A stretch of DNA of 64,000 nt from Patescibacteria group bacterium (lineage in GTDB: Bacteria; Patescibacteriota; Microgenomatia; Levybacterales; UBA12049). Shown in pieces: positions 24,117 through 44,752 of this stretch. The position numbers were made by a program, and so were the translations under genes. The DNA lies in the NCBI GenBank assembly GCA_035946335.1, contig DASYZL010000004.1, positions 23,896 to 87,895 of the forward strand, read 5' to 3'. Position 1 is the first letter of the stretch. The number at the start of each line of letters is the position of its first letter. The notes under the pieces were generated by a model. That model searched no databases and had not been told where the DNA came from. It was given only the letters and a program-made list of their open reading frames with translations.

Positions 24117-24167
24117 AAAGAAGTGAGAGGGTAATAACCCATCTATCTTCTCACTTCTTTCTTTTTT
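24116..24167 (+). terminator. Rho-independent terminator-like hairpin immediately upstream of the gyrA start
   Basis: GAAGTGAGAGG...CTTCTCACTTC 10-11 bp inverted repeat followed by TTTCTTTTTT, ending at the gyrA ATG. Confidence 0.6.
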
Positions 24168-29425: not shown

Positions 29426-31054
29426 ATGGATACGAATAAAGATTACTATAAGATAAGTTCATACGAAGCGAGAAAAGGGCAGGTGAAAAAAATTGTCCTC
29501 CTTTACTCCGGTAGTCTTTATACAACCGCACTGATCCCCTGGCTGAAAGAAACGTATAAGGCTGAAGTTGTCACGGTTACTGTTGATATAGGCCAAAAGG
29601 TGAATTTCGCAGAAATAAAAGATGACGCGTTGCGAGTTGGCGCATCAAAAGCCATTTTTATTGACGCAAAACAGGAGTTTGCAGAAAAGTACATTGCAAA
29701 AGCAATTAGAGCAAACACAGCATATAGAGAAGGATATCATTTATCTGCTCCCTTAAGCCGTCCCCTTCTAGCCAAACATGTAGTCAAAATAGCCGAAGAG
29801 GAGGGCGCTTCAGCAATTGCACATGGCGCATCAGGGCAAAGCAATGACCAGGTACGTTATGAAAGCCTAATCATCACACTGAATCAGGACATGAAAATTA
29901 TTGCGCCGTTACGCGGAAACGAGTTTTCATTGAAAGATTCTAAAGAATATGCAAAAAAATACAAAATCGCACAGGAGTATCAGGATCCGTACTATGCTAC
30001 AGATAAAACGCTATGGGGCGCAAGCATACTTGGCGGGACTGTGGAAAATACGTTCAAGCTTATCCATGTTGAACATTTGCTCAGTATGACAACCTTACCT
30101 GAAAAAGCTCCTGATACTCCTGAAAGTGTTACAGTAGAGTTCTTCCATGGCCTTCCAATAAAGGTGAATGGTAAACAGATGCCGCTTACTCCGTTAATTC
30201 AGGAATTAAACATCATTGCCGGAAGAAACGGTGTTGGTATTTCCTACCACATTACAGACATTATTATCGGCGTAAAACTGCGAAGTATTGATGAAGAACC
30301 AGCCGCAACGTTACTTATCAATGCACACAAAGAACTGGAAAAGTACGTATGCACGCGGGAGGAAAATGATATGAAACCGCTTATTGATACAAAGTGGATG
30401 TCGCTTTGCCACGATGGCTTGTGGTATGAACCACTTATTGCAGACATTGATGCGTTCATTACAACGGTTAATAAAAAGGTAAACGGTACCGTAAGTATTC
30501 AGTTGTATAAAGGGAATATGGATATTACGAATGTAAGAGCTCCCCAAACAATCTTTGAGAGAAAACGTGCAATGCATCTTGCAGATTATAGCATCATAAA
30601 CCCTCACGCGTTTCCCGGCTATATCGAAATTCACTCACTTCCCATGCGCCTTGCATATAGAAAAGAAAGTAATATTTTACTAACCATTGGGAAACGGAAT
30701 AATAAATTAAAACTTATCCAATCGCTTCGGGAAATCGATAGAGACCGGGTAACACTGTACGCAACATACAAAACGCATAAATTTCTTGCGAGGAACGGTA
30801 TATCATCAATACTTGTTAACAAAATGATGCATAAACATTTAGAGCCGAATTTGCGTACTTTATTACTTGAGAACCGTTTTGATGTCATTATCCGTATTCC
30901 TTCCGCAAAAAAATTGACACAAGGAGAGAAAGAAGCAGCGCAATTTATTCAAGATAAAGCAAAAGAGAATAATGTTTTGCTTATCGCTTCAGTAGAAGAA
31001 GCTCACAAATTGCTAGAAAGCTATCATAAAGCTCTAAAAAAAATTAACGTTTAG
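29426..31054 (+). CDS. Argininosuccinate synthetase-like N-type ATP pyrophosphatase with degenerate PP-loop, fused to a C-terminal MGS-like (CarB allosteric-type) domain
   Basis: Full-length ArgG homology (AHGASGQSNDQVRYES, GRNGVGISYHITDIIIGVKLRS, LWYEPLIADIDAFI), but the PP-loop reads SGSLYTT instead of SGGLDTS. The extra approximately 130-aa C-terminus (ATYKTHKFLARNGISSILVNKMMHKH) resembles the CarB MGS-like domain. Confidence 0.8.
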   Translation: MDTNKDYYKISSYEARKGQVKKIVLLYSGSLYTTALIPWLKETYKAEVVTVTVDIGQKVNFAEIKDDALRVGASKAIFIDAKQEFAEKYIAKAIRANTAYREGYHLSAPLSRPLLAKHVVKIAEEEGASAIAHGASGQSNDQVRYESLIITLNQDMKIIAPLRGNEFSLKDSKEYAKKYKIAQEYQDPYYATDKTLWGASILGGTVENTFKLIHVEHLLSMTTLPEKAPDTPESVTVEFFHGLPIKVNGKQMPLTPLIQELNIIAGRNGVGISYHITDIIIGVKLRSIDEEPAATLLINAHKELEKYVCTREENDMKPLIDTKWMSLCHDGLWYEPLIADIDAFITTVNKKVNGTVSIQLYKGNMDITNVRAPQTIFERKRAMHLADYSIINPHAFPGYIEIHSLPMRLAYRKESNILLTIGKRNNKLKLIQSLREIDRDRVTLYATYKTHKFLARNGISSILVNKMMHKHLEPNLRTLLLENRFDVIIRIPSAKKLTQGEKEAAQFIQDKAKENNVLLIASVEEAHKLLESYHKALKKINV

Positions 31055-31120
31055 CCTCTTGCAATAAGCAGATTGCGTGCTATAATTGCAACAATATTTG
31101 TAATCTTACAACAAGTAACT

Positions 31121-31156
31121 ACCCTCGCTTGCAGTGAGGGTTTTTTTCTTTTTTTA
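31121..31156 (+). terminator. Rho-independent terminator after the argG-like gene
   Basis: ACCCTC-gcttgcagt-GAGGGT hairpin followed by a 16-nt T-rich run ending 2 nt before the next ATG. Confidence 0.6.
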
Positions 31157-31157
31157 T

Positions 31158-32726
31158 ATGATTGACGTAGAAGAAATACTTTATAGGCATGATGGTTCAG
31201 AAATTGCAAGAAAAGGAGATTTAGTTCTTAAAGCGTTCAAGCACCCGGAATTATTCCTTCCTGCGGACGAATCATTAGCTGAAGTAAACATTCCTTGGAT
31301 TATTTCAGAGGAACGCCATAATTTAATGGTTCTTTCTAAAAATCCAAATCCCCCAAGCATTTACTATGCTGCTAATACCGGTGCACTAGACTTTACGCCT
31401 GCGCTTGTTGATCCTCGTATCGATCCGCAAGAAGCAGAAGAAATGAGGGTGAATAATTATGTATATGCATTACGACCATTGGGACTACTTACTCCAAACG
31501 ATTTCCTTGTTTTTACTGAAGGCGATGAGGAATGGATGATAGATGCTTATGCAAGAGTAATGAAACCATCGATGGAATCGTTTGGTCTCAGTTTGCCACC
31601 AGAAGACCATCTTATACCAACTTCTAATGTAGAAAAATGGATACTGGAGCAGAACGGAAGTTTGGCTATATGTCCGAGTGTCCCACTTCCTTCTCATGTT
31701 GCAAGTTACGGAGAAAGTCAAGCTGATGCAGTAGGAAAATATCTGCGTACATTAGCATATAATATTGCAGGCACAAAAGAGAGAGCCCAGGAGTTCTTTC
31801 AAAGCATACTGACAGACCGATTTCCAGGAGGAATTCCAACACCTAAAACACAATATGTATATTATGATCCCCAAATACATAGTCCTGAGATGATTGCAAA
31901 TATAGTTCGGGATACTGAATTGGGAAAATATAAGTATCTTTTTATCAAATCTACCGATGGAAGATCAGGGGGAACTGGCAGCGTTGGCTCTCGGATTGAA
32001 GAGCTTGGAAAACACATCGCGTTATATCCAAATCCACAGAAGTTGCAATTTCAAAAGGGAATAAAGATTGCAAGCGGTCAAAACATATGCGTTTCAGCAA
32101 ATATTACACCTAATCAGGTATTTATCAATTCGCATACCGTTCAACGGATAAAACAGACCCCTGAAGGATATGCAAAACATGATGGAAATATATGGAGAAA
32201 GGGTTGGAGACATGGTGTTGGAATGCGCTCGGATATTTTAGAAACAGTATCTGCTGCACTGGATGCTTTACGGGTGGATGGTAGAATAGTCGGACCGGTA
32301 AATATTGATATGGCAGGCAGTAGATCGAAGCCGAGATCAGAAAGGAGAGGTTCAGTCATTATTCCTATTTGCGCATTTGTCATTGAAGTCAATGCGCGAG
32401 ATGCAGGCTCAAAGTTAGTCATAGAACCATTCCAAGATAAAAAAATAGACGACGAACCGATTGAAACAATTATGTCAAGAGCATCTGTAGAAATTCCAAA
32501 TGACAGTTTTCTCTCCCCAGATGGTTCACGTATTTTAGAATATACTCAGACAGATGCTCTTAAGGGAGAGAAAGAAGGTATGCAAATAGGCATTGTTGGA
32601 CCTAGCAGGAAGTATCCGGGATGTCGACCAAGAGCGGGCTTTGTTTTCAGCGGAACAGAAAATGTTAGCTTGGAAGATTTAGAAAATCTTGAGAAAAAAG
32701 TACTCAGTAAAATTGAGTCATGGTAA
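31158..32726 (+). CDS. Hypothetical protein with putative C-terminal ATP-grasp domain
   Basis: KYLFIKSTDGRSGGTGSVGSRIEEL (Lys plus Gly-rich loop) and GPVNIDMAG...AFVIEVNARDAGS (R/D...E-x-N) resemble ATP-grasp signatures; the roughly 270-aa N-terminal half is unassigned. Start set after the terminator; the ORF-track start at 31134 lies in the T-run. Confidence 0.5.
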   Translation: MIDVEEILYRHDGSEIARKGDLVLKAFKHPELFLPADESLAEVNIPWIISEERHNLMVLSKNPNPPSIYYAANTGALDFTPALVDPRIDPQEAEEMRVNNYVYALRPLGLLTPNDFLVFTEGDEEWMIDAYARVMKPSMESFGLSLPPEDHLIPTSNVEKWILEQNGSLAICPSVPLPSHVASYGESQADAVGKYLRTLAYNIAGTKERAQEFFQSILTDRFPGGIPTPKTQYVYYDPQIHSPEMIANIVRDTELGKYKYLFIKSTDGRSGGTGSVGSRIEELGKHIALYPNPQKLQFQKGIKIASGQNICVSANITPNQVFINSHTVQRIKQTPEGYAKHDGNIWRKGWRHGVGMRSDILETVSAALDALRVDGRIVGPVNIDMAGSRSKPRSERRGSVIIPICAFVIEVNARDAGSKLVIEPFQDKKIDDEPIETIMSRASVEIPNDSFLSPDGSRILEYTQTDALKGEKEGMQIGIVGPSRKYPGCRPRAGFVFSGTENVSLEDLENLEKKVLSKIESW

Positions 32727-32860
32727 GCTATTCACTACTGTACTGTTACAGGTCTCAAAACATATTCTCTGTATGTCACATGTAAACATAATCAAATAAT
32801 TTTCTCTTTTTCCTTTTTGAGCCTAACGTAATATTGGTTTTTCACATTATAATATGCAAT

Positions 32861-32911
32861 TTAGCTTCATTTTTTAATAAATTGACTCATATTTTATGAA
32901 AATGAAGCTAA
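32861..32911. promoter_or_regulatory. 13-bp perfect inverted repeat (TTAGCTTCATTTT / AAAATGAAGCTAA) with 23-nt spacer, upstream of a promoter
   Basis: Arms at 32861-32873 and 32899-32911, flanked by ATGCAATTT direct repeats; about 40-90 nt upstream of the predicted -35. Confidence 0.35.
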
Positions 32912-32947
32912 ATAGGCAAAAATGATGCAATTTTTACATTTTTCCTA

Positions 32948-32976
32948 TTGATTTTTTAAAAAACGTGCATTATACT
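32948..32976 (+). promoter_or_regulatory. Putative sigma70-like promoter TTGATT-N17-TATACT
   Basis: Near-consensus hexamers with 17-nt spacing; predicts a roughly 100-nt leader before the ATG at 33084. Confidence 0.4.
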
Positions 32977-33045
32977 ATACAGGTAAGATGATCTGTACGA
33001 AGCAACAAACTATCTTTCTTACGCTTGGACATACTCTTCGTTCAT

Positions 33046-33066
33046 GCAGCCGCAAGGCTGTTTTTT
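33046..33066 (+). terminator. Leader hairpin plus U-tract (candidate attenuator or riboswitch expression platform) about 25 nt upstream of the start codon
   Basis: CAGCC-GCAA-GGCTG (5-bp stem, GNRA loop, possible extension) followed by TTTTTT, then AAGGAGAG RBS and the ATG at 33084. Confidence 0.45.
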
Positions 33067-33083
33067 AATGTAAAGGAGAGAAT

Positions 33084-34733
33084 ATGGCAAGCGTAGAGAG
33101 AGCATCCACTGGACAAGGAAGAGAAGCATCAAATTTATCTGCAGTTGACTATGCCCGATTAGCGGCAGACGCTAAGCTGCGAATTGCAGATGCAGGAAAG
33201 ACGAAATCATCGCAACCAGAACTTACTCCTGAACAGCAAAATCATCTCCTGGTAAATCGCCCTGACTTTACGTTTGTTGATGGAAAACCACAATACACCA
33301 TCGATCAACCATTCTTTTGGTATTATCATAGTCCTGATCTCACCGTATATAAACCTTCTCCGCTTATGCATGCCGAGGTAAAAGGACACAATCTTCCTTT
33401 GGCGTTTGAGTATCTGACAAAAGTCACTGATGATGCAACACAACGAGATGTATATTATCGTGTTATCACCAAAGGCGTCCCCCTTGAGATTCAGGACTCC
33501 TTAGAGCAGGAAAATAACTCAACCTACTATGCATCAGAGGAGCTAAAAAAAGCCATGGATAAACTCCGAAAACAAAAATCACAACGGCGTTCTGCTACTC
33601 AGATATCAACTAATTGGTTTATGGAGAGAGAAGAGCATTATTACTTTGACAAGACAGGAAGATTAGAATGGCAAAATTCTGTTTTTAGCTCTGAAAATAA
33701 ACAAATAGTTCAACTTGTACATGTAGAACGGCTTGATCCAACTCGCACTATTGTTCCTGAAGATTTGCCAGACGAAGCGGCCATCCGGAGAACAATGCTG
33801 AAACTTAACCAACGGCTTAATCTTAACACAAATGAAAACGTTATTCAAAAAATGGCAATTCCTGAGACCGATCCGTTACCAAAGAATTTATCAGAGCAGA
33901 AACAGAAGGAAGAATTAGAAAGAAGGAAGCCGTTTGGTTTTCGGGGATGGAATGTATTTGAACAAAGGGAAATTCAAACGCCTTTTGCAACAAATAAGTT
34001 ATATACACTACGGCTGATGACTGAGCGTAATGGCACAAGGTTATTTATTAAGTTGCTTAGCGCTGAACCGCTTCGTGAAAAACTTCGTGAACTTGCTAAA
34101 AAAGATCAAGAGAGACCTGAAGGTTCTCGCGAATTTGATTTTATTCCAGTATCGGAAAATAAAAAGCTTGTTTCTCTTGAGAGGGTTTGTTCTTGTATGG
34201 GAGCGAGAAGAGGGTGCGATTGTTATGAACAAATGCCGGAACGAGTCGCAGCAACATTACGGGAGAATGGCGTTATGGTACTTCTGCAACTTGATCAAAG
34301 CATGGCTTATGGAGCACCTATAAATGCCTTAGAATACAAACAAGCAGCAATATTTACAAATACATTAGATACTGGCAAAGCACCTGGTAAGGCTGATAAA
34401 GTTTTTCATACTACAATGCCAATCAGAAAAGGGTGGTTTGGGGAAAATACTCCTAAAGATTTAACAGCCTATAAGGATATTGGCGAACTCATCATAAAAA
34501 TCTTCGGTCCACACCGAGAAAAAGAAGAATTTTATGAAATGATAACCGATAATGCAGCAAAACTCGGGTCAATCGAATCATGGGGATTAAAAGTAAAGCG
34601 GAGAAAAAGCGAGAAAGCAGATGCTGAAGTGAGAAAAGCAAAAGCAGAACACTTAGATTATCTTCCGCCAGATACGTCTCGTTCAAGACGAACTGGGACT
34701 ACGACACCATCAACATTTGCTTCAGCTGCATAA
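33084..34733 (+). CDS. Large hypothetical protein (549 aa) with CSC-x6-CDC cysteine cluster
   Basis: Strong RBS AAGGAGAG; no TM or signal peptide; VCSCMGARRGCDCYEQ possible metal-binding motif; Lys/Glu-rich C-terminus; slightly elevated GC. Confidence 0.6.
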   Translation: MASVERASTGQGREASNLSAVDYARLAADAKLRIADAGKTKSSQPELTPEQQNHLLVNRPDFTFVDGKPQYTIDQPFFWYYHSPDLTVYKPSPLMHAEVKGHNLPLAFEYLTKVTDDATQRDVYYRVITKGVPLEIQDSLEQENNSTYYASEELKKAMDKLRKQKSQRRSATQISTNWFMEREEHYYFDKTGRLEWQNSVFSSENKQIVQLVHVERLDPTRTIVPEDLPDEAAIRRTMLKLNQRLNLNTNENVIQKMAIPETDPLPKNLSEQKQKEELERRKPFGFRGWNVFEQREIQTPFATNKLYTLRLMTERNGTRLFIKLLSAEPLREKLRELAKKDQERPEGSREFDFIPVSENKKLVSLERVCSCMGARRGCDCYEQMPERVAATLRENGVMVLLQLDQSMAYGAPINALEYKQAAIFTNTLDTGKAPGKADKVFHTTMPIRKGWFGENTPKDLTAYKDIGELIIKIFGPHREKEEFYEMITDNAAKLGSIESWGLKVKRRKSEKADAEVRKAKAEHLDYLPPDTSRSRRTGTTTPSTFASAA

Positions 34734-37463: not shown

Positions 37464-38420
37464 TTAATGCTTGTTCCCGCTATGGAAACTCTTATGTACT
37501 TCTCTCAATTGTTTATTGGTTATGTGGGTATAGATTTGGGTTGTCGCAATATTTTTGTGTCCGAGCATTTCCTGAACAGAACGCAAATCAGCCCCGTTTG
37601 TTAATAAATCCGTTGCAAATGAATGTCTTAGCGTATGAACTGTTGCATCAATGGGAATTCGTGCATGTTTTACCTGTTTTTTTACCATCCGCTCAATCGA
37701 GCGGGGAGTGAGCCGCATTTTTTCTCCGTTATTTTCTTCATCTTTTCTTCCGGAATAGCGGATAAAAAGGGGTTTGAAGCTATCTTTTCGCTCATTCAGA
37801 TACATTGCAATCCAATCTGCAGCTCTATCTGAAATAAATACAATACGTGCCCGTCCACCCTTACCGATAACACCGAATTCTTTCCGCTCTAAATTCACCT
37901 GTTCATGGTTTAATTTACAAAGCTCTGAAACCCGAAGACCAGTTGAGAATAAGAGTTCGAGTATTGCGCGATCCCTAATACCTTCCTCTTTAGATGTATC
38001 AACACTTGTTACAAGGCGTTCAACCTGTTCCCGTTCCAGAAATTTTAGGCTCCTGCTTTCTGTTTTTGGTAAATCGATTTTTGATGGTTCAAGGGTAGGA
38101 AAGTCATTCTTGATAAGGAACCGTAGAAACGAACGAAGCGCAATCACATAGTAGTTTTGTGTCACCCGTTTTAACGTTAATCCTTTATCGTCAACTTTAT
38201 TTGCCAGATAACCACGATATTTTCGTACAGTTGCTATATCCAGATCTTTCAAACTTTTTCCTGGCAGGGTGGAGGAGAACCAGACAGCAAATATCTCCAG
38301 ATAGTGCTGGTAATCCCGAATAGTCAGTTTGCTTGCATTTTTTTCAATAGAAAGGTATTCGAGAAACTGGTTAATCTGCGTAATAAGTTGTTCTTGTTGA
38401 AGAGAGAGTGATGCAACCAC
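37464..38420 (-). CDS. xerC: Tyrosine recombinase XerC/XerD
   Basis: N-terminal core-binding domain, R...HTLRHSFATDLL...LGH...TQIYTH catalytic RHR-Y signature. Confidence 0.9.
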   Translation of the reverse strand: MVASLSLQQEQLITQINQFLEYLSIEKNASKLTIRDYQHYLEIFAVWFSSTLPGKSLKDLDIATVRKYRGYLANKVDDKGLTLKRVTQNYYVIALRSFLRFLIKNDFPTLEPSKIDLPKTESRSLKFLEREQVERLVTSVDTSKEEGIRDRAILELLFSTGLRVSELCKLNHEQVNLERKEFGVIGKGGRARIVFISDRAADWIAMYLNERKDSFKPLFIRYSGRKDEENNGEKMRLTPRSIERMVKKQVKHARIPIDATVHTLRHSFATDLLTNGADLRSVQEMLGHKNIATTQIYTHITNKQLREVHKSFHSGNKH

Positions 38421-43940: not shown

Positions 43941-44752
43941 AATCAACCATATTTACAACCTCGTAGAATACCCTAGGACGCGTTTTTATTGAAAATCCAT
44001 ATACTTACTCACTCAAGGTATATATTTTCTCAAGATTCTCTACGGTTTTCTTAAAATCAACTTCTCTAAGACATCCTGTAGTAGGGGATTGGCACTGAAT
44101 ATCGCTTAAGGTGCAGGAAATGGACTGGTTATCCCTCGAGTAAGATGAAAATAATATTTATCTTTTGCATTGATTTGAATGGAGGTAAAAATAAACCTGT
44201 TCCCCAGAAAGAATGCTCATCACGTCGTAAAAGTATTATTGTGCGACGTAATGAATTGAGCCTCCCGTCCATCAATCTTCGCTGTTTTCATGACAGTAAG
44301 AAGAGTGAAGAACTGCAGCTTTGTAGATAGCATGAGGAATGCTTATGCGTCTTATTGTCCTTGCACCACCTTCGTTGTACTTAGTCTTGCCAATATCAAC
44401 AGCCATTCTATCCGTTTCGTAAGAAAGGCCGTTCGTATTTTTTTTATCATATTAGCACTTATCTGTAGAGAATGAGAGAACAATACTCCACTACGCATGT
44501 GATTACAGTTAATTGCATGTATAAGTCTCTTACTCTTAGCTCATGTCTTTCTATTTATGTCTGTATCTCTTCTGGAGATCCGTGAAAACTGAAGCCAATT
44601 CCCTGTGAAAACTTATAGTTTATCCACATTTGTATTCAGTAATTATTATAGGATATTAACTATATCACTCTATATCACCTACCGCCTCTTCTTCATTTCC
44701 TGTTATTTTTAAATGACGTCTCTCTTCCCTGCTCGTGATGCTATCGTAGAAT

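Follow-up and report, generated by a model that had tools for sequence, protein, structure and literature searches.

Patescibacteria (CPR) have few regulators and cannot be grown alone, and little is known about their gene regulation. Herein, we asked what controls a gene for a 549-aa protein that, in one patescibacterial genome, is preceded by a gap of 357 bp. The window, i.e., the whole 64-kb stretch of DNA that was analyzed, contains about 60 intergenic gaps, and this one is among the three largest, so the earlier note on this DNA was right to call it unusually long. Over 6817 nt, the window agreed completely with a Logan assembly made independently from the same sample. The earlier note had described the region as the leader of an attenuation- or riboswitch-controlled gene. 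Our comparison rests on four sequences, namely the window and three homologous loci (L002, L004, and L005); it retained the terminator part of that description, which is conserved, and left the riboswitch part unsupported. The positions of the features are listed in Table 1.

Table 1. Features of the leader region and of a neighboring locus, in window coordinates
Feature	Positions	Strand	Details
Perfect 15-bp inverted repeat	32859..32913	.	Arms ATTTAGCTTCATTTT (32859-32873) and AAAATGAAGCTAAAT (32899-32913), 25-nt spacer
A/T-rich block upstream of and including the -35 hexamer	32871..32963	+	DNA-level conservation with L005 positions 516-608
Sigma-70-type promoter, TTGATT-N17-TATACT	32948..32976	+	9/12 consensus positions; predicted transcription start near 32983
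26-codon leader ORF (MICTKQQTIFLTLGHTLRSCSRKAVF)	32988..33068	+	From the ORF list; crosses the 5' arm of the long helix and the terminator hairpin
5' arm of the long helix	33013..33039	+	From the pair table and folds; anti-SD CUCUUC 33034-33039, CAUA 33030-33033
Intrinsic-terminator-like hairpin, GCAGCC-GCAA-GGCUGU then U6	33046..33066	+	Conserved across 4/4 family members
SD, start codon, and codons 2-6	33073..33101	+	SD AAGGAGAG 33073-33080, start codon 33084-33086
Putatively regulated gene, 549-aa protein with a likely GTP-cyclohydrolase-II-like domain	33084..34733	+	Very rare family, always beside pyrimidine-nucleotide genes
Module before the neighboring 522-aa orphan gene	31059..31157	+	TTGCAA-N16-TATAAT with extended -10, hairpin ACCCUCGCUUGCAGUGAGGGU, U7CU7

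The terminator-like hairpin and its gene family

The 549-aa protein had only three detectable homologues, with identities of 23-31%, and its fold is likely GTP or UTP cyclohydrolase II-like. The earlier note had found the gene where it is but listed its function as unknown, overlooking both the similarity to GTP cyclohydrolase II and the link to pyrimidine metabolism. In the window the neighboring genes are pyrG, argG-MGS, and dcd; the L004 gene has pyrF, prs, pyrE, and dcd as neighbors, and in L002 they are dcd, pfkB, an OTCase/ATCase-family gene read as pyrB, carA, and carB. The phosphoribosyltransferase adjoining the L004 leader scores as PyrE, below the NCBIfam curated cut-off. When word-indexed protein collections were searched with the 549-aa protein, with the 522-aa protein, and with a four-sequence profile, the query alone came back each time, and scanning genome and metagenome contigs by profile and by pattern revealed no further relatives of the family. 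The PDB sequence search with the family profile gave no meaningful match, PHROGs gave none, and the exact-sequence look-up of the neighboring dcd protein, carried out for strain variants of the leader, returned the same contig only.

The hairpin at 33046-33061 and the T-run at 33061-33066 were read in the 5' leader as the earlier note had reported, and the hairpin alone folds at -9.6 kcal/mol. With six pairs (four of them G-C), a GCAA loop, and U6, it has the sequence of an intrinsic (Rho-independent) terminator. Equivalent signals were found in L005 (721-744), L002 (296-322), and L004 (3624-3650), and in all four loci a GC-rich hairpin with U6-U8 ends 6-17 nt before the start codon. The start itself is conserved in the four homologues, with the N-terminus M-(A)-T/S-(V)-E-R/Q. 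The earlier note had made its reading depend on the conservation of the leader structures in related genomes; the hairpin and U-run were kept in position in every family member.

Terminator-like sites counted by a loose definition were not enriched in the window (12 found vs 12.0 expected). When the T-run had to follow the stem directly, seven sites remained in the 64 kb on both strands, six of them on the + strand, and such strict terminators numbered one in L004, one in L005, and three in L002. The four stems differ in sequence, yet each retains 6-7 pairs, with energies from -7.7 to -9.6 kcal/mol. Between the alignable hairpins of the window and L005, one G-C pair is replaced by A-U and one G.U by G-C; since the L002 and L004 stems are in different registers, we claim no formal covariation statistic. 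Only the leaders of the window and L005 could be aligned, and only in part (local alignment, blastn), whereas the MAFFT alignment of all four was uninformative. The motif common to the four leaders consists only of the terminator 3' arm and the T-run.

In all four loci the terminator has the placement of an attenuator, between a promoter-like site and the start codon and with 6-17 nt from the U-run to the ATG. The 17 nt between the U-run and the ATG leave no room for a further promoter, so the 549-aa gene would be expressed only by terminator read-through. Considering that the window stem is short, termination may be weak. L002 and L004 each have an additional, earlier hairpin with a U-run, which could already end the upstream gene, and the hairpin adjoining the ATG therefore needs a separate explanation. 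As it precedes the gene in all four loci, this hairpin probably does serve the 549-aa gene as an on/off or dimmer element. That it is a conserved intrinsic terminator acting as a regulated transcription attenuator is the reading we adopt, tentatively and at somewhat less than even confidence; termination and regulation are what we infer from the conserved elements and their predicted structures.

Promoter, upstream DNA, and inverted repeat

The promoter named in the earlier note is present, but the wording "near-consensus" was generous, as sites of this quality are about as frequent in the window (33) as in shuffled sequence (35.6 expected). Each of the four loci has a promoter-like site, with a predicted transcription start, 100-165 nt upstream, so the order of promoter and hairpin noted for the window was found throughout the family. 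The consensus matches are 9/12 with TGn in L005, 12/12 in L002, and 11/12 in L004. A promoter between the U-run and the ATG was considered and rejected: the only candidate there, TTTAAT, does not have the key A at position 2, and the homologues have no equivalent.

The A/T-rich block around the -35 hexamer matched L005 with 68/96 identities in blastn (E = 2e-9), and its local alignment score was 50, compared with a shuffled mean of 20.5 (sd 2.6). Thus the window promoter and approximately 70 nt upstream of it are kept in a related genome, and L005 has the identical TTGATT hexamer within a matching sequence context. The block probably holds an UP-element-like or regulator-binding region together with the -35 hexamer. 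This DNA is conserved with L005 although the family proteins are only about 23-28% identical. A search of two large collections with a pattern from the conserved promoter block (TTTCCNNTTGATTTTTTANAAAA) gave 139 loci, all of them apparently chance matches in unrelated taxa, and none encoded a family homologue by tblastn.

Upstream of the promoter lies a perfect inverted repeat, which the earlier note had recognized but measured as 13 bp with a 23-nt spacer, instead of the 15 bp and 25 nt found here. With spacers up to 60 nt allowed, it is the longest perfect inverted repeat of the window (the runner-up has 12-bp arms), and we estimate that one of this length arises by chance about 0.01 times per window. 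Folded as RNA, it reaches -21.6 kcal/mol (z = -6.1 vs shuffles). About 97 bp separate its center from the predicted transcription start downstream. The repeat, lying upstream of the promoter, is therefore not part of the leader RNA, and the corresponding position of L005, the closest locus, showed no hairpin potential (z = +0.95). Its inclusion in the attenuation architecture was thus not borne out. By this sequence comparison the repeat is specific to this lineage, and it is possibly an operator for a DNA-binding protein. The direct repeats reported around it were confirmed, with copies of ATGCAATTT at 32855-32863 and 32925-32933. The inverted-repeat 13-mer did not recur beyond chance elsewhere in the 64-kb window. 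A MITE-like element composed of the inverted repeat and the ATGCAATTT copies was rejected, because the direct repeats are asymmetric about the inverted repeat and because of this lack of recurrence.

Riboswitch tests, leader ORFs, and the start-region helix

A long leader with a terminator adjoining the start codon of a nucleotide-metabolism gene could belong to a ligand-binding riboswitch, of a known or a new class, with the terminator as the expression platform. Elsewhere, FMN riboswitches often control genes for GTP cyclohydrolase II, and the window leader folds better than shuffled sequence. However, Rfam gave one tRNA only for the whole window at gathering scores, chance-level matches and no riboswitch family for 32600-33200 at E<=10, and nothing in the three related loci at E<=1 except an unrelated weak tmRNA-like match. 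Besides the terminator, which is the sole motif that the leaders share, no conserved aptamer core was found in the four homologous leaders, four sequences being a weak test. The surplus folding energy in the window comes from the helix over the SD described below and not from an aptamer-like domain. Neither was a stable alternative pairing of the terminator 5' arm predicted in any of the four leaders, so that the folds offer no mutually exclusive anti-terminator. The pairing of ACGAAG (32997-33002) with CTTCGT (33036-33041), put forward earlier in that role, does not overlap the stem at 33046-33061 and hence cannot exclude the terminator; it is also absent from the MFE and centroid folds. A conserved leader terminator without a conserved aptamer makes the riboswitch very improbable.

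The leaders also contain short ORFs that reach or cross the terminator, and these are the sole candidate found for another means of keeping the hairpin from folding; that of the window, which crosses the terminator, had been overlooked before. The window ORF starts with an ATG 12 nt downstream of the -10 hexamer and ends with a TAA whose T is also the final base of the T-run (33066), the other two bases following it. Genes of this genome typically have 6-15 nt between the end of the -10 hexamer and the start codon, and the start of the leader ORF equals in this respect those of bona fide leaderless or short-leader genes. All three frames are open across most of the window leader, so an ORF there is unsurprising by itself. 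Counting all four leaders, ORFs of 26 (window), 36, 49 (L004), and 21 codons reach or cross the terminator, the one in L002 stopping 8 nt before the hairpin. Multiplied together, the shuffle probabilities of the individual leaders give ~1e-3, for a criterion that was chosen after the data had been seen. In L005 the start geometry is poor, with the ATG 30 nt after the -10 hexamer and no SD; in L004 it is acceptable, and the 49-aa product has a hydrophobic stretch. The peptides are not conserved among the four loci. U-rich pause sites or T-runs upstream of the terminator are clear in L004 and L002 only.

In each of the four loci, promoter, transcript of 80-165 nt, and terminator make up a complete unit, which may suggest a separate small gene, either an sRNA or the mRNA of a 26-aa peptide (~83 nt in the window and ~117 nt in L005), with the 549-aa gene transcribed by incidental read-through. 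The plausible ORF starts in the window and L004 and the hydrophobic stretch of the L004 product agree with such a gene. However, neither the RNA sequence nor the peptide is conserved among the four loci, and there is no Rfam match; we regard this explanation as quite unlikely. Moreover, the unit always abuts the start codon of the same gene and leaves no space for a promoter in between, so that this gene would depend on it anyway.

The strongest structural signal in the window is a predicted helix of 24 pairs between its 5' arm and 33075-33101, with the terminator at its tip. In this helix, CUCUUC pairs with GGAGAG, and CAUA pairs with UAUG (33083-33086), which comprises the AUG and the nucleotide preceding it, CAU being opposite AUG; SD, AUG, and codons 2-6 are thereby buried. 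The start region (-75 to +25) folds at -38.1 kcal/mol compared with a mean of -16.0 (sd 5.5), making it the most stable of 58 genes, with z scores of -3.9 and -3.35 vs shuffles. The earlier note was correct about the hairpin and about the ribosome-binding site immediately downstream of it, where the SD and the ATG at 33084 were found, but it had missed that the hairpin is the tip of this long helix.

Such burial raises the question of whether the hairpin and U-tract mainly shape translation initiation or mRNA stability rather than termination. The U-run would then be a single-stranded landing site for an S1-type ribosome interaction by the AUG, bounded or stabilized by the hairpin, and in the window the hairpin would be just the tip of a translational repressor helix over the SD and AUG. 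The U-run ends 6-17 nt from the AUG, and three of the four homologues have no SD in between. The genome is SD-poor (10/58 genes have one by a loose criterion), T-rich tracts before start codons are common, and the hairpin-U-run-ATG arrangement also occurs at other genes (see below). However, a GC-rich stem followed by 6-8 U is the exact signal of an intrinsic terminator and is met first by the RNA polymerase, and the helix over the SD and AUG is absent from L002, L004, and L005. Overall, a post-transcriptional role, in either of these forms, appears rather unlikely, though it deserves consideration.

Proposed attenuation, known systems, and similar modules

If the hairpin is a regulated attenuator, transcription would run from the promoter through a 5' leader of roughly 100 nt to the terminator. 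Given that conservation is limited to the terminator and that the folds predict no stable anti-terminator helix competing with it, an RNA aptamer is probably not the sensor. The ribosome may serve as the sensor by translating the leader ORF across the terminator; when close behind the RNA polymerase, it would keep the hairpin from folding, as happens at the pyrBI and pyrE attenuators of E. coli. Considering the pyrimidine gene context, the supply of pyrimidine nucleotides could be the signal that is read out. Our best guess, by analogy, is ribosome- or nucleotide-dependent attenuation resembling that of pyrBI. A second layer may exist in the window alone: after read-through, the helix of 33013-33039 with 33075-33101 would hide the SD, the AUG, and codons 2-6, and a ribosome translating the leader ORF would open it, so coupling the 549-aa gene translationally to the leader ORF.

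The E. coli pyrBI and pyrE attenuators are reportedly UTP-sensitive and coupled to translation, according to Turnbough and colleagues. Like them, the present loci combine a promoter with a leader of about 100-160 nt, carry an intrinsic-terminator signal right in front of the structural gene, and contain a putative leader ORF that passes through the terminator and ends near the gene start, without an RNA aptamer and in a pyrimidine-nucleotide context. They differ in that U-rich pause clusters are not clear in the window and L005 and that UTP dependence and RNA polymerase pausing are here hypothetical. In addition, the leader ORFs are not conserved and have weak start signals in some loci, the hosts are Patescibacteria with many leaderless mRNAs, and the regulated gene is neither pyrB nor pyrE.

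The PyrR-dependent pyr attenuators of Bacillus (RF00515) also place terminators directly upstream of pyrimidine-pathway genes, sometimes in series. Unlike in Bacillus, no anti-terminator or anti-anti-terminator is predicted here, no pyrR gene was identified, and the PyrR binding loop (RF00515) was not matched upstream of the terminator in the window region or in the three related loci. Strings similar to CCAGAGGC and CCAGAAGC in L002 and L004, which we take to resemble the PyrR loop, themselves form terminator arms.

Translational attenuation of the erm and cat type resembles the window, as the SD and AUG of the main gene lie in a helix whose 5' arm is inside a short upstream ORF, so that a translating ribosome would free both. 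The helix layer, however, is found in the window only and is combined with a terminator, and no stalling peptide motif or inducer is known. Terminator-platform riboswitches such as the FMN riboswitch upstream of ribA share the terminator immediately before the gene and the GTP-cyclohydrolase-II-like fold, but the loci described here have no aptamer, Rfam match, or conserved leader core. The B. subtilis pyrG attenuator works by CTP-sensitive reiterative transcription and needs only the start region and the terminator hairpin (PMC7039003). It is similar in having no aptamer and in that its gene concerns pyrimidine nucleotides. It differs in that the starts predicted here do not have a GGGC-type initial sequence, and the terminator 5' arm does not have a pyrimidine tract to pair with added G residues.

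Similar modules occur at other genes. The essential gyrA of this genome has a hairpin with CUUUUUU directly before the ATG, the L002 gene read as pyrB has the same promoter-hairpin-U7-ATG module, and a small ORF in L002 is also preceded by the hairpin-U-run-ATG arrangement. As gyrA is essential, such modules may be leaky or serve another purpose. For the 549-aa gene, a constitutive leaky terminator would stop a fixed fraction of transcripts without any signal, setting a low level or insulating the gene from a strong promoter. Small patescibacterial genomes encode few regulators, the stems are short, no anti-terminator or conserved sensor element was found, and the position of gyrA points the same way. 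However, promoters of consensus strength in L002 and L004 combined with a terminator would be a wasteful route to a low level, and the elaborate helix over the SD and the leader ORF of the window suggest conditional control; we thus consider the leaky terminator unlikely. If it were no more than that, the finding would be ordinary.

If the regulated attenuator is correct, the locus may offer a concrete example of a nucleotide-metabolism gene tuned with neither an RNA aptamer of its own nor a known regulatory protein. A previously unannotated protein family also gains a likely fold and a pathway context. In its widest form, the proposal is that Patescibacteria use an aptamer-free attenuator in which a strong promoter is followed by a leaderless leader ORF and by a terminator right at the start codon, and in which the translating ribosome, and through it nucleotide supply, decides on read-through, here controlling a previously unrecognized cyclohydrolase-II-like enzyme of pyrimidine nucleotides, and that the module is general (pyrB, gyrA, and the 522-aa orphan gene). 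This generalization is doubtful at present; if it is true, the hairpin-U-run-ATG module at these genes would be a general regulatory device of these organisms. The orphan gene encodes a protein unrelated to the 549-aa protein, and its ATG follows the U7CU7 by two bases.

A conserved hairpin and U-run before the start codon

The source is a Patescibacteria metagenome-assembled genome, and the window has about 39% G+C and tightly packed genes. The gap of 357 bp between the genes of a 522-aa orphan protein (31158-32726) and the 549-aa protein (33084-34733) is among the three largest of the ~60 intergenic gaps, which agrees with the earlier note, and all the elements that the note listed could be read directly in the sequence. 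A Logan assembly made independently from the same sample agreed with the window sequence at every position over 6.8 kb, which excludes an assembly artefact. The largest gap (43941-44752, 812 bp) contained no ORF of at least 90 aa and no Rfam match at the gathering score.

Protein searches found no close relatives of the 549-aa protein. When 1.84 billion representative proteins were searched exhaustively with HMMER, this query yielded three homologues, P0003, P0004, and P0005 (E = 6e-28, 2e-20, and 1.5e-5; 28-31% identity), and their contigs (L002/L003, L004, and L005) were retrieved. Identities within the family alignment were 23-28%. Because the N-terminus was conserved (MASVERAS, MATEQRAS, MTEQ, MTERA), the true start codons could be set at L005 751, L002 329, and L004 3664. 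The upstream gap was long in all four loci (window, 357 bp; L005, 320 bp; L004, 278 bp; L002, 196 bp), the L002 value being measured back to the stop codon of an upstream gene fragment.

A canonical hairpin with a U-run that stops 6-17 nt short of the ATG was present in all four loci, including the window hairpin described in the earlier note, whose claim had been made to depend on conservation in related genomes. Strict terminator signals were rare: there were seven in the 64 kb on both strands together, the main hairpin being one of these, with six on the + strand of the window; L004 (+ strand) and L005 had a single one each, and L002 had three. A hairpin and U-run lay directly against the start codon in only 3 of ~58 window genes; even if the base rate is put as high as 10%, which is generous, we estimate the chance of finding four in four at ~1e-4. 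The four stems differed in sequence and kept their pairing, and in the alignable pair, window and L005, one G-C pair was replaced by A-U and one G.U by G-C. As all four loci carry it next to the ATG, the hairpin is a conserved feature and, judging from this comparison, a functional element of the 5' leader.

Features of the leader and of similar modules
Feature	Locus	Position	Details
Main hairpin	window	33046-33066	GCAGCC-GCAA-GGCTGT, T6; 17 bases from U-run to ATG
Main hairpin	L005	721-744	GCAACC-GTTAT-GGTTGC, T7; 6 bases from U-run to ATG
Main hairpin	L002	296-322	ACAGCCA-GTGA-TGGCTGT, T8; 6 bases from U-run to ATG
Main hairpin	L004	3624-3650	AGCAGC-ATCC-GCTGCT, T8; 13 bases from U-run to ATG
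First hairpin and U-run	L002	184-225	
First hairpin and U-run	L004	3500-3531	
Inverted repeat, perfect	window	32859-32873, 32899-32913	
Promoter	window	32948-32976	TTGATT-N17-TATACT; 9/12 consensus positions
ACGAAG/CTTCGT	window	32997-33002, 33036-33041	
Helix arms (predicted)	window	33013-33039, 33075-33101	24 pairs
Shine-Dalgarno site	window	33073-33080	AAGGAGAG, upstream of ATG at 33084
gyrA module	window	24117-24167	12-bp arms 24117-24128 and 24149-24160, then CTTTTTT
522-aa gene module	window	31059-31157	promoter TTGCAA-N16-TATAAT with TG, 10/12; 9-bp hairpin 31121-31141, U7CU7
Module of gene read as pyrB	L002	3486-3551	consensus promoter, hairpin CCAGAGGCCATCTCTGG from about +1, U7

Promoters and upstream DNA

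The window promoter alone proves nothing, because matches of this quality were equally common in shuffled sequence. The promoters of L002 and L004 matched the consensus at 12/12 and 11/12 positions, that of L005 was TTGATT-N16-TACAAT with an extended -10, and all four lay 100-165 nt upstream of the ATG. Over ~96 nt that end at the -35 hexamer, the window and L005 could be aligned (68/96 identities, E = 2e-9), with a local alignment score of 50 versus 20.5 +/- 2.6 for shuffled sequence. Since this DNA is conserved at a distance where identity is only about one quarter between the family proteins and 58% between the ArgG-MGS proteins, the window promoter is very likely real and the A/T-rich block upstream of it is, by the same alignment, under constraint.

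The inverted repeat lies upstream of the promoter and therefore outside the leader RNA. It is perfect, as the earlier note had it, with arms of 15 bp and a spacer of 25 nt rather than 13 bp and 23 nt. It is the longest perfect one in the window, folded much more stably than shuffled sequence (z = -6.1), and overlaps the start of the A/T-rich block. L005 had no counterpart with hairpin potential, and the repeat is possibly an operator for a lineage-specific protein.

Read-through, leader folding, and leader ORFs

Because the space from the U-run to the ATG is too short for a promoter, any mRNA of the 549-aa gene carries both hairpin and U-run in its 5' leader, and we firmly infer that expression would require terminator read-through. 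That the region produces a separate small transcript seems quite improbable.

The Rfam scan proposed in the earlier note matched no family in the leader region even at E<=10, nor in the related loci. The terminator 3' arm and T-run were the only motif common to the four leaders, and when these were folded without that arm, no stable structure captured the 5' arm in any of them. With no Rfam match, no other shared motif, and no competing fold, the analysis supported neither a riboswitch nor a PyrR site nor a classical RNA anti-terminator, and a ligand-binding riboswitch with a terminator is very improbable. The ACGAAG/CTTCGT pairing, put forward as an anti-terminator, does not overlap the stem and was absent from predicted folds. 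The attenuation architecture is partly supported: the conserved leader hairpin stands, and an RNA anti-terminator is not predicted.

In the predicted fold of the window, the main hairpin caps a long, irregular helix that buries the Shine-Dalgarno (SD) site (CUCUUC with GGAGAG), the AUG (CAU with AUG), and codons 2-6. From -75 to +25, the 549-aa gene folded at -38.1 kcal/mol, compared with a mean of -16.0 +/- 5.5 for 58 window genes and -25.7 for the next best; against shuffles, leader folding gave z = -3.9 and -3.35. Such a helix was absent from the folds of L002, L004, and L005, whose family genes have no SD. A mainly post-transcriptional module, somewhat unlikely in our judgment, would draw on this helix.

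The genome is SD-poor (10/58 window genes by a loose criterion), and -10-like hexamers concentrated at positions ending 6-10 nt before the 58 window start codons, suggesting that leaderless or very-short-leader mRNAs are widespread. Window start codons were also often preceded by T-rich tracts. In the window leader, which is mostly open in all three frames, a 26-codon ORF begins with the ATG at 32988, 12 nt past the -10 hexamer, and runs across the helix 5' arm and the terminator hairpin; its TAA overlaps the last T-run base, 15 nt before the main ATG. ORFs of 49 codons in L004 and 36 codons in L005 cross the terminator, and one of 21 codons in L002 ends 8 nt before it. Shuffling gave per-leader probabilities of 0.13-0.27 (product ~1e-3) under a criterion set post hoc, so these ORFs are suggestive only.

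We tentatively favour the hairpin and U-run as a regulated attenuator. The agent would most likely be a ribosome on the leader ORF; in the window, this ribosome would open the SD-sequestering helix as well. Nucleotide supply would be the most plausible signal, with pyrBI and pyrE as the analogous cases of ribosome- and nucleotide-dependent attenuation. Leader attenuators are a well-known class; this candidate belongs to a poorly studied lineage and an unannotated enzyme family.

Pyrimidine gene context and similar modules

Searches of Pfam, NCBIfam, PHROGs, and PDB sequences returned nothing for the 549-aa protein, and the AlphaFold model from a four-sequence alignment was mediocre (pLDDT 56). 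The family conserves the motif ER-x-C-x-C-M-x-G-R-R-G-C-D-C, which we take to resemble the zinc site of RibA. The gene sits among pyrimidine-nucleotide genes in every locus: pyrG, argG-MGS, and dcd in the window; pyrF, prs, pyrE, and dcd in L004; dcd, pfkB, an OTCase/ATCase-family gene read as pyrB, carA, and carB in L002; and argG-MGS in L005. The window argG-MGS gene (29426-31054) encodes an argininosuccinate synthase that carries an MGS-like domain of the CarB-end type as a C-terminal fusion, and L005 keeps this arrangement. In L005 (compared over 2-751), the ArgG-MGS gene (58% identical) directly precedes the gap and the family gene, so the 522-aa orphan gene looks like an insertion between these two genes in the window, or a loss in L005. 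A single word-indexed search of 5.8 billion proteins found no homologue of this orphan.

Similar modules occur elsewhere. The gyrA inverted repeat is the second-longest perfect one in the window, and its module fills the whole gap from the ppa stop to the gyrA ATG, with CUUUUUU directly before the latter. Because this essential gene has one, hairpin-U-run modules may be leaky or serve another role; that the 549-aa gene merely has a constitutive leaky terminator gains from this and is still unlikely in our view. At the 522-aa gene, without an SD, the ATG follows two bases after the U-run, and argG-MGS could use the hairpin as its terminator, too. In the L002 gene read as pyrB, the ATG lies 4 nt on. 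The family-gene leaders of L002 and L004 have a first hairpin and U-run that begin at the predicted transcription start; in L002, this first hairpin and U-run immediately precede the ATG of the 21-codon ORF.

Cumulative GC skew reached its maximum near 36 kb, beside a XerC/D-type tyrosine recombinase gene (37464-38420); this peak might mark the replication terminus or be a mere effect of the coding-strand switch.
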